A stretch of DNA of 64,000 nucleotides from an uncultured delta proteobacterium (GTDB lineage Bacteria > Desulfobacterota > WTBG01 > CAIYCZ01 > CAIRTM01), in assembly GCA_963718965.1 (NCBI GenBank), contig CAVRBJ010000038.1, forward strand, positions 86,402-150,401, written 5' to 3'. This document shows, piece after piece, positions 3,330-52,593 of this stretch. A program made the position numbers and the translations under genes. Position 1 is the first letter of the stretch. Each line of letters begins with the position of its first letter. The notes beneath the pieces are model-generated. The model was given only the letters and a program-made list of their open reading frames with translations. It searched no databases and was not told where the DNA came from.

Positions 3330-4811
3330 ATGGACTCCATGACAGAAGGCTTATCTGATGACTTCAAAAAAGCTCTGACAGATATCGTCGGCGAGCAGTA
3401 CGTGACTGATGACCCGGTGACGCGCTTTACCTACACCCGCGATGCAAGCCTTTTCGGCGGAACAGAATCCGCGCTTGTTGTGCGGCCGGGCTCAACCGAT
3501 GAGGTGTCGCGCATTGCAGCATTGTGCAATCGGCAGCGCGTGCCCATCGTGATGCGCGGCGGCGGCGCCACTATTTACGGCCAGCCCAAGGGCGACCCTG
3601 ACCGTACCGTTCTGCTGGACATGACGCGCATGGACCGGGTTCTAGAGGTTAATGCAGAGAGCATGACCGTCACAGCCGAAGCAGGCATTATTTTGGGCAA
3701 AATGGTGCATGCCTGCAAAAAGAATGGTTTTTATATGTGGTCGCCTTTTGCGCCTTTGCATATGGTATCACTTGGCGGATGGATATCAGGCGTTGCTGGT
3801 GCGGCGGGTCTCTGGACCGATATCGTGAGCATCACCGTGGTGCTTGCCGATGGCACCATTGTGCAAACCGGCGGCGGACCAGGCACCAATGTGCATCAGG
3901 CCCTTGCCTATAACAGGAATCTGGGAGGGCCGGATTTTGCCGGAATGTTCATCGGCGATGGCGGCTCCTTCGGCATTAAAACCCAGGCTACCATCCGCAT
4001 GACGAAACACCCCGCCAAGCTGCGGGCGGGCATTTTCGCTTTTGATTCAATCGAGCCTGCGCTTGAGCTCGTGCGGCTCCACGTTGAACGCCGGCCGGTG
4101 CTGCGCTTTGACCCGTGCTGGTATTTGGCGCCGGGGCAATGAAAAATTTTATGGGTGATACCGACGAGGTTGCGCCCTTTACCGTTCAGTGCATGATACA
4201 GGGCCACGAGGAGTCCGAGGTTGAAGCACGGCTTGCCACCATTAACAGCCTTGCCGATCAGTGCGGGGCACAGCGCAACTTCATGCTCGATGCCATGGCT
4301 GAAGCCATGGGAACACCAACCGGCGAGGACAGCGAAATGGACTGGATGGCCATTTTCAACAGCTTCGGCATTCCGGCATGGCTGCCCTTCAACCTGCCGC
4401 GGCAGGGCTTTGCGGAAGTATATAACAAGCTTATCGCCTGGCGAAATGATCGGCTCAAGAGCGCCGAAACGCAGTGCCTTCGCGTGCGCACAACCTGGGA
4501 GTTTTTCACCGCTTCGGACCCAAGCACCATCGTCGGTGAAATCGACGTTTTCTTTGCCGATGTTGACAATCCGGCTGCAATCTGCCTTTGCACGCACTTT
4601 AATGGCTGATTTTCAAAAATACGCCCACAGCCTTGGATCAATTGATGTCTACAATCAGGGATTCATGTCAGACCTGAACGCCTCGTGCTGGTCCCCCGGC
4701 TTCAAGAGCCTGTTTGAGGCTGTCAAAGGAGTTGTTGACCCTAATGGCATTCTCAATCCCGGCCAGTGGACCGGTAGTTATTTAAACGAAAAGGAGAACA
4801 GCAATGGCTGA
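3330..4811 (+). CDS. FAD-binding oxidoreductase (FAD_binding_4, VAO/GlcD type); frameshifted
   Basis: Fragments 3330-4142, 4115-4609 and the tail of 4221-4811 join into one protein. The N-terminus has the PCMH-type FAD fold (...ALVVRPGSTDEVSRIAALCNRQRVPIVMRGGGATIYGQ...). The family-typical C-terminus is ...LFEAVKGVVDPNGILNPGQW. Confidence 0.8.
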
Positions 4812-50389: not shown

Positions 50390-50716
50390 ATGCCCTACCG
50401 AGGCAGGAATAAAACACGTTGGCCAAAAGTTACAGCCGAACCAAAAAGCGTTGAAGAACTTCTCAAGGAGATGAAAAAAAACCCTTCTGCCGATGCTAAC
50501 TACCGGGAGCGGTCTCTGAAAATTCATGGACTTATTTGCGCCAAGTGCGGCACAGAGTTTGAACTTGCTAACAAACATCTTCTGACCGTACACCACAAAG
50601 ACGGCAATCATAAAAACAACCCGCCCGACGGATCCAACTGGGAAAATCTCTGCATCTACTGCCATGACGATGAGCACAGCAGAGGTGTTCTGGCTGATTA
50701 TCTTACAAAAGGATAA
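50390..50716 (+). CDS. yajD: YajD family HNH nuclease
   Basis: Intact 108-aa ORF. ...ERSLKIHGLICAKCGTEFELANKHLLTVHHKDGNHKNNPPDGSNWENLCIYCHDDEH... contains the HNH/Zn motif. Confidence 0.8.
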   Translation: MPYRGRNKTRWPKVTAEPKSVEELLKEMKKNPSADANYRERSLKIHGLICAKCGTEFELANKHLLTVHHKDGNHKNNPPDGSNWENLCIYCHDDEHSRGVLADYLTKG

Positions 50717-51136: not shown

Positions 51137-51151
51137 TGGCACAATACTTGT
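51137..51151 (+). promoter_or_regulatory. Candidate sigma54 (-24/-12) promoter upstream of the riboswitch leader
   Basis: TGGCAC-AATAC-TTGT has the canonical 5-nt spacing. The -12 element is TTGT instead of TTGC. Confidence 0.3.
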
Positions 51152-51244
51152 ATAAAATATTTATTGAGTGCATGAACAGGTTCTAAATTTAAATGTTCAG
51201 TGGGCGTTTTCTTGTGATTCGAACATAAAGGACATTTCAAAGTA

Positions 51245-51335
51245 CCAAACCGAAAAGAGCACACTACTTCGTAAGAGTAGGTCGCAAAGTTACCGATCCT
51301 GAAATGCAAGGACAGCGGGACTGCCGGTAGTGAAA
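51245..51335 (+). promoter_or_regulatory. Candidate c-di-GMP-I (GEMM) riboswitch aptamer
   Basis: AGCACAC, then the hairpin CUACU(U)C-GUAA-GAGUAG capped by a GNRA tetraloop (51271-51274), then GGUCGCAAAGUUACCGAUCCU ... AGGACAGCGGGACUGCCGGUAG. Compare the Vc2 aptamer blocks GGGCAAACC...GAAA...GGGACGCAAAGCC and AGCGGGGUUACCG. The downstream operon encodes a PilZ protein. Confidence 0.6.
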
Positions 51336-51352
51336 TTATTTGTCACAGCCGG

Positions 51353-51381
51353 CCTCTCCTTATTCCCAGGAGGGGTTTTTT
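51353..51381 (+). terminator. Riboswitch expression platform: terminator hairpin that also sequesters the RBS
   Basis: CCTCTCC (51353-51359), a 9-nt loop, GGAGGGG (51369-51375), then TTTTTT. The 3' arm contains the AGGAGG that serves the TTG start at 51383. Confidence 0.6.
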
Positions 51382-51382
51382 A

Positions 51383-51862
51383 TTGCAAGAAAGACATAGG
51401 CTTTTCTTCTACAGAGACCACAATGACATGAGGCTCAATATGGATGTACATTTTAAAAAACCTCGCATACTGATAGTGGATGACAGTCGTCATATCCGTG
51501 ATGTTATCAGGTCGTTTTACGATGAATACGGCTTTGATGTGCTGGAGGCGGTTAACGGGAGGGAAGCGGTGGAGATGGCCCGGACACATGCACCTGACCT
51601 GATTCTGTTGGACATACAGATGCCGGTGATGAACGGCTACGAGGCAGCCGTCATTTTAAAAAATGACAAGGCTCTTAAAGACATCCCGCTACTTGTCCTT
51701 ACTGGTCAGGCATTTTGTGAGGTGACGGAACGGATAAGCGGTATGTATGACGGGTATCTGAGTAAACCTTTTAATCAGGAAGATCTGATAAAAGAGACCA
51801 TGCAGTGCTTGTCCAATAGAATATCTAAACCACTCGTAGACACTCAAACAAAGAGTGTATAA
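51383..51862 (+). CDS. Single-domain response regulator (CheY-like receiver)
   Basis: ...ILIVDDSRHIRDVIRSFYDEYGFDVLEAVNGREAVEMARTHAPDLILLDIQMPVMNGYE...LVLTGQA...YLSKPF... The start is TTG at 51383, or an internal ATG at 51428 or 51440. Confidence 0.85.
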   Translation: MQERHRLFFYRDHNDMRLNMDVHFKKPRILIVDDSRHIRDVIRSFYDEYGFDVLEAVNGREAVEMARTHAPDLILLDIQMPVMNGYEAAVILKNDKALKDIPLLVLTGQAFCEVTERISGMYDGYLSKPFNQEDLIKETMQCLSNRISKPLVDTQTKSV

Positions 51863-51927
51863 TCAGGTAATAACGACCACGTCAATACAGTTATATTTTT
51901 GATAGTTTTAAACCAGTGGAGGGGTAC

Positions 51928-52192
51928 ATGCAGAATATGGAAGAATCTTTCTATGAAAAGATGCGCGACAAGGTTCGATTCAATATTGAACTCAACATTA
52001 GGTATTGCATCAAGGGGCATGGCCAGCAGCATCAGGAATGTCGGATAGCCAATTTGAGCGCCAGCGGTGCAATAGAACACTTCCCTCGTACGGAAAGCCC
52101 CATACGTTGTTGTGAACATCGGATTGCATAGTACTGGTGGTCGCAGTAAAGCGTCACAAAATCAATCTTGGGAAACTGAAAAGTGCTCATGA
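51928..52192 (+). CDS. PilZ domain protein (c-di-GMP receptor); one frameshift near 52075
   Basis: The ATG at 51928 follows GGAGGGG. The motifs are RxxxR (RDKVR) and (D/N)xSxxG (NLSASG). After the shift the frame reads ...LVRKAPYVVVNIGLHSTGG... and ends at TGA 52190-52192, which overlaps the next ATG (ATGA). Confidence 0.65.
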
Positions 52193-52335
52193 ACAACAAA
52201 ATGACGAAGGAAGAACTGATTAATATTCTGAAGGGCCTGCTTAAAACTCAGGAGGATGTTTCATTCCTGTTGAAACTTGATAAGCCGGATTTGGAAAAGC
52301 TGGTATCTGTGGTGCGGAACTATGTCGATGGGTAA
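52189..52335 (+). CDS. Small hypothetical protein (48 aa), translationally coupled to the PilZ gene
   Basis: MNNKMTKEELINILKGLLKTQEDVSFLLKLDKPDLEKLVSVVRNYVDG. It shares an ATGA overlap with the shifted PilZ stop. It falls below the ORF-track cut-off and I recognised no family. Confidence 0.4.
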   Translation: MNNKMTKEELINILKGLLKTQEDVSFLLKLDKPDLEKLVSVVRNYVDG

Positions 52336-52455
52336 CGGCATTAAATTTTTCTAAATTTGTTTTAACCTTTTTTTAATTATCACATGTTAAATTGTAAAAA
52401 GATTAAAGCAAAAAATAGAGCAACAAAACAAGCAGGGCGTTTTTTTATCTGATAG

Positions 52456-52492
52456 TGCAGGGAGTGTGCCCCCCCCTTTCATGCTCCCTGCA
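52456..52492 (+). repeat. Hairpin repeat copy 1 with C-rich loop
   Basis: TGCAGGGAG (52456-52464), a 19-nt loop TGTGCCCCCCCCTTTCATG containing C8, then CTCCCTGCA (52484-52492). Confidence 0.55.
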
Positions 52493-52557
52493 AAAATCAG
52501 TTTCCTGAGGCGAAAGAATGCTTCAAGAGTAGTATTAGAATAAAATTTCTTCATAAA

Positions 52558-52593
52558 GTGCAGGGAGAATGTCCCCCCTCATTTTCCCTGCAC
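52558..52593 (+). repeat. Hairpin repeat copy 2 with C-rich loop
   Basis: GTGCAGGGA (52558-52566), an 18-nt loop GAATGTCCCCCCTCATTT containing C6, then TCCCTGCAC (52585-52593), followed by GCCTCCTCCTT. It is a direct repeat of copy 1, about 103 bp downstream. Confidence 0.55.

Follow-up and report, generated by a model that had tools for sequence, protein, structure and literature searches.

What kind of RNA switch lies in the leader of the cheY-like gene of this uncultured delta proteobacterium (Desulfobacterota), which ligand would it read, and in which direction would it act? GEMM RNAs have long been described beside chemotaxis or signal-transduction genes. A sequence-only reading of this locus had proposed a c-di-GMP-I riboswitch controlling an operon of CheY, PilZ and small-protein genes, through a hairpin that is both a terminator and the hiding place of a ribosome binding site. 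We have analyzed the locus within a stretch of 64,000 nucleotides of DNA, here called the window, and compared it with related loci (labeled L with a number). On balance we favor a single explanation, in which a GEMM-Ib-like riboswitch with adenine at position 20 lies in the cheY leader, behind a sigma54-type promoter, and acts through a terminator in a ligand-OFF manner. The features discussed are collected in Table 1.

Table 1. Features of the riboswitch-cheY locus, in positions of the window
Feature	Position	Strand	Basis or detail
Sigma54-type promoter candidate	51137-51151	+	TGGCAC-N5-TTGT; -24 box perfect; -12 box GT, not GC
GEMM-I-fold cyclic-dinucleotide aptamer	51248-51328	+	RF01051 match, RNAfold, conservation
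P1 (ACCG/CGGU)	51249-51252 paired with 51325-51328	+	
J1-2	51253-51258	+	AAAAGA
Ligand-reading nucleotide	51258	+	A, equivalent of Vc2 G20; cmscan alignment and numbering of PMC3764141
P2	51259-51285	+	GUAA loop at 51271-51274
P3 (UCCU/AGGA, CCG/CGG)	51288-51322	+	
Switching hairpin H_A	51323-51353	+	GCCGGU/GCCGGC and inner GUGA/UCAC stem
Intrinsic terminator	51353-51381	+	CCUCUCC, 9-nt loop, GGAGGGG (51353-51375), U6 (51376-51381)
Shine-Dalgarno sequence of cheY	51430-51433	+	GAGG, 6 nt before ATG; read from sequence
cheY-like stand-alone receiver gene	51440-51862	+	140 aa; Pfam Response_reg (PF00072), 5.2e-24
Truncated PilZ gene remnant	51928-52131	+	Residues 1-57 homologous, 10 unrelated codons, TAG 52129-52131
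Conserved small protein, function unassigned	52189-52335	+	48 aa; co-oriented with the operon, not specifically linked

The element in the leader is a genuine member of the GEMM-I family. The Rfam c-di-GMP-I model RF01051 matches positions 51248-51328 (+) from end to end (model positions 1-87 of 87) in cmscan, with a score of 51.1 bits (E = 4.6e-07), above the gathering score of 35. A covariance-model search had been offered with the sequence-only reading as the check on its family assignment, which is borne out. The elements from which that assignment was made, i.e., AGCACAC (51258-51264), the GUAA-capped P2, GGUCGCAAAG, P3 and ACAGCGGGACUGCCGG, are all found in the leader where they had been placed. 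Folding 51248-51328 alone with RNAfold gives a P1/P2/P3 three-helix junction with the GUAA loop capping P2.

The aptamer is 91-98% identical to those of four related loci. The corresponding values are 46-73% for the upstream 100 nt, 73-77% for cheY, and 36-38% for the leader beyond the terminator. In an alignment of six sequences 96.5% of the cells are paired, compared with 54.5% or less when the partners are slid. Double-sided changes occur at four pairs of this alignment, where covariation is weak because the relatives are little diverged. The tetraloop receptor of P3 (the UAAg and uAu model positions) is deleted in the cmscan alignment. A receptor-less P3 together with a GUAA loop is, we assume, the GYRA-loop 'type 2' layout that Sudarsan reportedly described in 2008 for GEMM-I members, and should not disqualify the RNA from the class. 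The archetype of RF01051, Vc2 of Vibrio cholerae, shares with the RNA in the window the three-helix junction, a J1-2 of 6 nt, a GNRA-capped P2, the core GC-AA-AG and AGC...CUGCC, and the covariance model itself. It differs in having a GAAA tetraloop and an 11-nt receptor in P3, where the window has the GUAA loop and the receptor deletion. We consider it almost certain that the element is a functional riboswitch.

Which cyclic dinucleotide might this RNA recognize? In the numbering of Vc2 the reference positions are G14:C93, G20 in J1-2, C22:G45 and C92 in J3-1 (PMC3764141). In the cmscan alignment A51258 stands opposite model position 11, a G, and adjoins the GC pair on its 5′ side; A51286 and A51287 correspond to A47 and A48, and C51324 to C92. 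The RNA thus has A at position 20 with C92 retained, which is the criterion for GEMM-Ib, and the c-di-GMP-specific contact set of G20, A47 and C92 is incomplete, with A47 and C92 present and A in place of G20. Position 20 is A in all five riboswitch-cheY loci that have the site on their contig (the window, L153, L168, L170 and L171). In the paralogue L084 it is G, in a pocket sequence that is otherwise near-identical. It is also G in Vc2, which discriminates against cGAMP.

A20 is the signature of GEMM-Ib, the subtype that senses 3′,3′-cGAMP or is bispecific, and the determinant of cGAMP recognition (PMC6140456, PMC6456294). The GEMM-Ib riboswitches of Geobacter (Gs1761, upstream of pgcA, and Gmet_0970) have the same GEMM-I fold, A20, C92, A47/A48 and terminator platform as found here. 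Because position 20 is A, 3′,3′-cGAMP, or cGAMP together with c-di-GMP, appears more likely as the ligand than c-di-GMP alone, and it is rather probable that cGAMP is included. Given A20, the automatic label 'c-di-GMP-I riboswitch' may name the wrong ligand; the earlier proposal holds good for the fold family, but c-di-GMP as the ligand is doubtful.

The selectivity of natural A20 aptamers extends from 1200-fold down to bispecific binding (PMC6456294, PMC6140456), and some of them prefer c-di-GMP. Cbe 1-2 of Clostridium beijerinckii, a natural GEMM-I aptamer that carries A20 as here, is bispecific, and binds c-di-GMP at 30 nM and cGAMP at 463 nM (PMC6140456). An A at position 20 is thus not enough by itself to decide the ligand. 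The same riboswitch might therefore have c-di-GMP as its sole or dominant physiological ligand, again with purely transcriptional control of cheY. Aptamers of the Cbe 1-2 type favor this, and the module regulated in the relatives contains PilZ, a protein of the c-di-GMP pathway, and in one relative a protein with HD and HD_5 domains (HD-GYP type) that also belongs to that pathway. Yet the invariance of A20 in the cheY-linked family, against G20 in L084, suggests a selected difference, and in a Geobacter aptamer the single change A20G is enough to reverse the specificity, switching Gmet_0970 to c-di-GMP selectivity (PMC6456294, PMC6140456). We regard c-di-GMP in this role as possible, if somewhat unlikely.

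How might ligand binding be communicated to the gene? The stem CCUCUCC/GGAGGGG with its U6 tract had been taken for an intrinsic terminator, and this is confirmed. The terminator scan reports it at 51351-51377, the stem extending that far when H_A is open, and its 3′ strand with the U-tract matches at 13/13 positions in each of the four relatives. There are five terminator-like sites in the region, compared with 1.3 expected. The folding energy of the terminator lies between −10.9 and −13.6 kcal/mol, the full stem giving −13.6 kcal/mol.

Between aptamer and terminator lies the alternative hairpin H_A, which sequesters C92, the 3′ strand of P1, and C51353, the base at the foot of the terminator stem. 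Every one of the five loci has H_A in its pre-terminator fold, and four also have it in the minimum free energy fold. In the ensemble calculated without ligand, pairing probabilities are up to 0.999 for the pairs of H_A and 0.0 for those of P1. The outer helix of H_A is retained among the loci while its loop is replaced, and the innermost pair is U.G in the window and A:U in L153, L168 and L171. The abutment of H_A on the terminator, with an overlap of one base, is common to all the relatives and to the paralogue L084. The unliganded ground state is calculated at −40.4 kcal/mol, compared with −38.2 kcal/mol when the aptamer and the extended terminator are enforced, a difference that binding in the nanomolar range would readily make up.

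These folds suggest the following mechanism. Ligand binding would close the short P1 helix and engage C92; P1 and H_A are mutually exclusive. In the absence of ligand H_A would form and hold the bottom base of the terminator, leaving, at a distance from the U-tract, only a 6-bp stem of −7.6 kcal/mol. Once ligand is bound, the 3′ strand of H_A would be freed, and the terminator could zip down to the U-tract at the full −13.6 kcal/mol. More ligand would then mean more termination, i.e., an OFF switch. We lean towards OFF polarity because the liganded state is predicted to lengthen the terminator down to the U-tract. The importance of the base of a terminator stem beside its U-tract is well established, and the polarity reading rests on that base, since the liganded and unliganded predictions differ in just the bottom 1-3 pairs of the terminator. 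The 6-bp stem is still predicted at a probability of 0.93 in the unliganded ensemble. Two other class I riboswitches, Cd1 of Clostridioides difficile and Bc1 of Bacillus thuringiensis, work by ligand-promoted intrinsic termination and are OFF switches, the same polarity as proposed here. They lie upstream of motility or signaling genes, carry G20 and respond to c-di-GMP, and their hosts and platform sequences are unlike those of the window. Bc1 has two terminators (PMC11218506).

The opposite polarity is that of the Geobacter pgcA GEMM-Ib riboswitch, where ligand lowers termination. The characterized Geobacter GEMM-Ib members are ON switches (PMC6456294), located before cytochrome, pilus and polysaccharide genes, where here we have the OFF reading and a CheY-type receiver (with PilZ in the relatives). 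Moreover, both states are predicted to contain a terminator stem, and thermodynamics alone leaves the polarity unfixed. Nevertheless the freed 3′ strand of H_A can solely lengthen the terminator, and the predicted folds contain no antiterminator favored by the liganded state. An extended antiterminator reaching into P3 (GGG 51317-51319 with CUC 51354-51356) was considered and dropped, being energetically poor at −27.4 compared with −32.9 kcal/mol. An ON switch is in our view unlikely.

A further pairing is available to the leader RNA. J1-2 (GAAAAGAG) can pair with the 5′ strand or loop of the terminator, over 8/8 positions in L153 and L171 and more weakly in the window. This may simply reflect the composition of an A-rich and a U-rich sequence.

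Upstream of the aptamer, the TGGCAC-N5-TTGT sequence noted initially as sigma54-like is indeed present, and gains support from the relatives. A sigma54 promoter is expected to have GG at −24 and, ten bases away, GC at −12 (TGGCAC-N5-TTGCW), whereas the −12 box of the window, L153 and L168 reads GT. Taken by itself the sigma54-like motif occurs about as often as chance predicts, with two matches in the whole window against 1.35 expected. The support for a sigma54 promoter comes rather from conservation of the motif in related loci, the box being kept in three relatives. GAATTGGCACAATACTTGTA is unchanged between the window, L153 and L168, and L171 has a canonical TGGCGC-N5-TTGCA at an equal distance from the aptamer. 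In L170 the site of the sigma54 box is occupied by a sigma70 consensus, TTGACA-17-TATATT. From these comparisons we give a little better than an even chance to transcription of the leader from a sigma54 promoter.

The first gene encodes a stand-alone receiver domain, as had been recognized. All the residues aligned with D12, D13, D57, T87, Y106 and K109 of E. coli CheY, which make up the acidic pocket, the phospho-acceptor Asp and the T/Y/K switch, are identical, and 70 homologues at E ≤ 1e-30 have the same N-terminus. Where does its translation begin? The sequence-only reading chose TTG 51383, with the terminator stem hiding its ribosome binding site, and neither part of this withstands comparison. 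In L153, L166 and L170 the frame of the TTG is not that of cheY, and in L168 and L171 in-frame stops lie between the two, i.e., the TTG fails in 5/5 relatives. All 15 of the homologous proteins retrieved carry the start block M-x-x-x-F/S-x-KPRILIVDD, which forms the N-terminus except where the gene call begins upstream and runs through the leader (P0011 and P0013). The conserved start is ATG 51440, and gene callers place the start there or at ATG 51428. Judged from these alignments, cheY is translated from its own Shine-Dalgarno sequence and ATG 51440; the relatives have AAGGA, AGGGAG or CGGA at a matching distance. From terminator to ATG the leader behaves as non-coding sequence, since its identity between loci is so low and its length varies from 57 to 93 nt. 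Because cheY has its own Shine-Dalgarno sequence and an ATG 57 nt beyond the terminator, control would be transcriptional only.

The original proposal, in which a c-di-GMP class I riboswitch has a terminator that also hides the AGGAGG of TTG 51383, such that transcription and translation would both respond to the ligand, consequently appears improbable. It has in its favor the Rfam family name, the AGGAGG placed 8 nt 5′ of a TTG whose open reading frame continues in frame into cheY in the window, a AGGAGGGGUUUUUUAUUGCA block that is invariant in the relatives, and the ability of A20 aptamers to bind c-di-GMP tightly (PMC6140456). Each of the start-codon comparisons above runs against it, as do the divergent leader of variable length and the A at position 20.

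The arrangement recurs. The riboswitch lies upstream of cheY homologues in L081, L153, L168, L170 and L171 also. Part of it can be seen in L166, and likewise in P0011 and P0013, two translations that read through the leader. Among the relatives riboswitch-cheY-pilZ turns up repeatedly as a module, in which the regulated unit would be cheY-pilZ; in L082 cheY has been lost. A CheY scan of the genome contigs returned relatives at ≤46% identity, dominated by the generic receiver pattern, and seven such loci were without the riboswitch. One metatranscriptome shared 4% of the sampled words, just fragments of 30-40 nt of the generic DIQMP receiver motif from other organisms.

In the window itself the second gene is not intact. 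The RxxxR and NxSxxG motifs that had identified it as PilZ are there (RDKVR and NLSASG), but it retains just residues 1-57 of a protein that is 116 aa long in its homologues (P0002, 80%). Those homologues carry PF07238, a domain in which the RxxxR and D/NxSxxG motifs belong to a full six-strand beta-barrel, while the open reading frame here has no Pfam PilZ match at E ≤ 0.1. Nucleotide homology to L082 and L083 stops at 52099, and a tblastn search found the C-terminal half of PilZ nowhere in the window, returning residues 1-57 only. A simple assembly indel was rejected as the cause, the other two frames giving nothing PilZ-like. The truncation junction is also covered by a separate contig in run X1, and the remnant there has a further frameshift. 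On this sequence comparison, pilZ is a truncated remnant in the genome of the window.

The third open reading frame, of 48 aa, belongs by homology to a real small-protein family (18 homologues of 44-73 aa, 56-100% identical, none with a Pfam domain). On other contigs its neighbors are unrelated, e.g., Flavin_Reduct, a trypsin-like protease and a terminase. It had been described as coupled to PilZ through an ATGA overlap, which in fact lies in another frame; the PilZ stop codon is 57 nt before ATG 52189. Given the doubt over c-di-GMP, the truncation of pilZ and the uncoupled 48-aa frame, the suggested feed-forward loop of an RNA receptor acting over a protein receptor is therefore not intact here.

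The truncated pilZ, its further frameshift in strain X1 and the reciprocal loss of cheY in L082 might suggest that the riboswitch is a decaying, non-functional relic in an eroding locus, but this is hardly credible when aptamer and terminator are conserved better than any other part of the locus, the intact cheY coding sequence included, and cheY retains all its catalytic residues.

We return to the A20 riboswitch with a terminator of probable OFF type in the cheY leader. It is otherwise a quite ordinary representative of a riboswitch class that is well known. Correcting the start codon and recognizing the truncation of PilZ guards against over-reading the operon. More speculatively, and as a distinctly tentative proposal, A20 riboswitches that sense cGAMP may, in uncultured Desulfobacterota outside Geobacter, act as OFF switches that shut a sigma54-driven CheY-receiver/PilZ module. 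If so, this would be the first cGAMP riboswitch of OFF type, those characterized being ON. Should cGAMP be the ligand, riboswitch-mediated cGAMP signaling would extend past the exoelectrogenesis genes of Geobacter to a phosphorelay/PilZ module, possibly with opposite polarity. In that case cGAMP would act as a repressor of both a c-di-GMP receptor and a phosphorelay node, linking two cyclic-dinucleotide systems by direct cross-talk.

The leader upstream of cheY had been read from sequence as a c-di-GMP-I riboswitch followed by a terminator, and all of the leader sequence elements listed in that sequence-only reading lie where it placed them. A covariance-model search gave a match to RF01051 (c-di-GMP-I) of 51.1 bits; the gathering score is 35. 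The match covers 51248-51328 on the + strand (E = 4.6e-07, model positions 1-87 of 87), and is the sole gathering-level Rfam match in the window (cmscan, Rfam 15, whole window). Folded in isolation, 51248-51328 adopts a textbook three-helix junction, and a terminator scan confirmed the proposed terminator stem and U-tract. The locus is a further example of a known riboswitch class, and any Rfam-based annotation would detect it. The association of GEMM with chemotaxis and signalling genes reportedly dates from papers of 2007-2008.

Features of the riboswitch-cheY region (window coordinates; C92 in Vc2 riboswitch numbering)
Feature	Position	Strand	Description
P1	51249-51252 / 51325-51328	+	ACCG with CGGU; fold of aptamer in isolation
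J1-2		+	6 nt, AAAAGA; fold of aptamer in isolation
P2	51259-51285	+	GUAA cap; fold of aptamer in isolation
P3	51288-51322	+	fold of aptamer in isolation
Hairpin H_A	51323-51353	+	tail G-C92-CGGU pairs with GCCGGC immediately 5′ of terminator
Terminator	51353-51375	+	CCUCUCC, 9-nt loop, GGAGGGG, then U6; scan match 51351-51377
pilZ remnant	51928-52131		residues 1-57 at 88% identity, then 10 unrelated codons; stop 52129-52131
48-aa ORF	52189-52335		conserved small-protein family without Pfam domain

The tail of the aptamer also takes part in the hairpin H_A. P1 and H_A cannot coexist, and C51353 is common to H_A, as its last base, and the terminator stem, as its first. In the predicted unliganded ground state (-40.4 kcal/mol) P2, P3 and H_A are formed together with a 6-bp terminator, while enforcing the aptamer extends the terminator to 51351-51377 (-38.2 kcal/mol). 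The extended terminator hairpin by itself has a predicted energy of -13.6 kcal/mol, and the 6-bp hairpin -7.6 kcal/mol. The pair probability of P1 is 0.0 in the predicted unliganded ensemble, in which the 6-bp terminator stem is still predicted with probability 0.93. Ligand binding would free the 3′ strand of H_A, whereupon the terminator stem would close down to the U-tract, and for this reason the model suggests an OFF switch. Underlying this reading is the general property of intrinsic terminators that a weaker, set-back stem terminates less. Folding of the riboswitch leader revealed no structure giving ON behavior; an antiterminator extended into P3 was rejected as energetically unfavorable.

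The same aptamer is present in a near-identical contig (L081). More distant relatives were obtained by scanning metagenome contigs for a DNA pattern, giving locus L153, and through CheY homologues of 65-80% identity, giving loci L166, L168, L170 and L171. The aptamer lies 5′ of cheY in L153, L168, L170 and L171 (49.7-56.1 bits, Rfam); the L166 contig begins within P3. Two of the homologous proteins, P0011 and P0013, are over-extended gene calls translated right through aptamer sequence. With the window as reference, identity in four relatives is 91-98% for the aptamer and 100% for the terminator 3′ strand with its U-tract, compared with 46-73% for the 100 nt 5′ of the aptamer, 45-84% for the aptamer-terminator linker, 36-38% for the post-terminator leader and 73-77% for the cheY coding sequence. 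The RNA elements are thus more constrained than the protein. H_A is also conserved, with its outer helix retained and its loop swapped between lineages; the window has U.G as the innermost pair, where L153, L168 and L171 have A:U. Across six aligned sequences, pairing in the proposed helices reaches 96.5% and falls to 54.5% or less when the partners are slid, and four pairs show changes on both sides; since sequence diversity is low, this covariation is supportive, not strong. Directly 5′ of the aptamer (51223-51247) a block CAT-AAA(A/G)GAC(A/G)TT-N-AAA is kept in the window, L153, L168, L170 and L171, even though the promoter region of L170 is otherwise unrelated. The block could belong to a structured part of the leader RNA; no pairing partner for it was identified.

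Which ligand does the aptamer bind? In the cmscan alignment A51258 stands opposite model position 11, where the model has G as the base immediately 5′ of the conserved GC pair. In the Vc2 riboswitch G14:C93 caps P1, G20 lies in J1-2, C22:G45 in P2, A47-A49 in J2-3 and C92 in J3-1 (PMC3764141). As J1-2 is 6 nt in both Vc2 and the window RNA, A51258 corresponds to position 20; A51286 and A51287 correspond to A47 and A48, and C51324 to C92. The cGAMP-binding GEMM-Ib riboswitches have adenine in place of G20, the mutant Vc2 G20A accepts either ligand, and bispecific examples occur among natural members (PMC6140456). With A20G the Gmet_0970 aptamer, otherwise selective for cGAMP, becomes selective for c-di-GMP, and the pgcA riboswitch is ~1200-fold cGAMP-selective (PMC6456294). 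A20 is invariant in the cheY-linked riboswitch family; paralogous tandem aptamers in locus L084 have G, with the same 3′ pocket sequence. From the position, the literature and this invariance, the c-di-GMP label is not safe, although membership of RF01051 stands. On sequence grounds cGAMP is probably a ligand, bound selectively or shared; that c-di-GMP is the physiological ligand seems less likely.

The L084 aptamers (3430-3818; 60.6 and 60.4 bits) lie on a contig that stops 5′ of the regulated gene. The first has the same platform design, its tail hairpin abutting a 9-bp terminator with a one-base overlap.

The closest known systems are the Geobacter GEMM-Ib cGAMP riboswitches, which share the GEMM-I fold and A20. 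However, those are ON switches preceding extracellular electron-transfer genes, whereas the window locus is a predicted OFF switch preceding cheY. Cd1 and Bc1, OFF switches of class I, have the polarity predicted here, but carry G20.

Translation had been proposed to start at TTG 51383, with the ribosome binding site hidden in the terminator. This TTG lies 8 nt past the AGGAGG of the terminator 3′ strand in the window and in four of five relatives (the exception being L170), and in the window its ORF happens to read into cheY. But its frame differs from that of cheY in L153, L166 and L170, and in-frame stop codons cut it off from cheY in L168 and L171; the spacer varies from 57 to 93 nt. All 15 retrieved homologous proteins contain the block M-x-x-x-F/S-x-KPRILIVDD, N-terminal except where the gene call extends upstream of it, and each locus has a purine-rich Shine-Dalgarno sequence 6-9 nt 5′ of the cheY ATG. 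We assign the cheY start to ATG 51440, with its own GAGG (51430-51433), and its ribosome binding site is therefore not sequestered by the terminator.

The sigma54-like box TGGCAC-N5-TTGT, taken alone, occurs in the window at the chance rate, yet it is conserved in relatives. A 20-nt block GAATTGGCACAATACTTGTA is the same in the window, L153 and L168, L171 has a canonical TGGCGC-N5-TTGCA at equal distance from the aptamer, and L170 has a perfect sigma70 consensus, TTGACA-17-TATATT, at this position (L170 2033-2165). This favors a real promoter here, probably of sigma54 type in most copies, from which the transcript would start near 51162, ~85 nt 5′ of the aptamer. Compared with the other copies, L170 shows an apparent swap of promoter type 5′ of the riboswitch-cheY unit.

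The cheY gene is intact in the window. Its product is a receiver domain, as had been proposed (Pfam Response_reg, 5.2e-24), with residues D12, D13, D57, T87, Y106 and K109 of E. coli CheY at aligned positions. The adjacent PilZ protein fared less well: its RxxxR and NxSxxG motifs are retained (RDKVR, NLSASG), but only residues 1-57 of 116 are encoded. PilZ homologues have 116 aa and PF07238; the fragment is unrecognized by Pfam. Nucleotide homology to intact pilZ genes stops at 52099, and a search of all frames across the window did not recover the C-terminal half. An assembly indel was rejected as the explanation, because the junction also appears in a separate 297-nt contig from run X1, a related strain; there an extra G after 52013 would again shift the frame. 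The truncation is thus real, and pilZ seems to be a decaying remnant. Its supposed ATGA overlap with the 48-aa ORF lies in a different frame. Of the 18 homologues of that ORF, 16 measure 44-49 aa. The ORF represents a real small-protein family, and in other contigs its neighbors are unrelated (Flavin_Reduct, a trypsin-like protease and a terminase small subunit).

Two direct hairpin copies with a C-rich loop (GCAGGGAG...CTCCCTGC), ~103 nt apart, lie 3′ of the small ORF (52443-52593). Directly 5′ of the riboswitch leader is a small HNH-endonuclease-domain gene (50390-50716, 108 aa), and synteny with L153 begins only past it, at ~50887.

The cheY-pilZ module is found in L153, L169 and the contigs encoding homologues P0010 and P0035; no riboswitch was detectable in L167 or L169. 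The reciprocal case is seen in L082 (1-353) and L083, where an intact 116-aa pilZ follows only the last ~70 nt of cheY, without a cheY ORF or a riboswitch 5′ of pilZ, and a second PilZ paralogue comes next. The module seems prone to rearrangement. On the P0035 contig a riboswitch-linked cheY paralogue and PilZ are followed by an HD-GYP-type protein of 323 aa (HD_5 and HD domains), and the full module may include a cyclic-dinucleotide phosphodiesterase.
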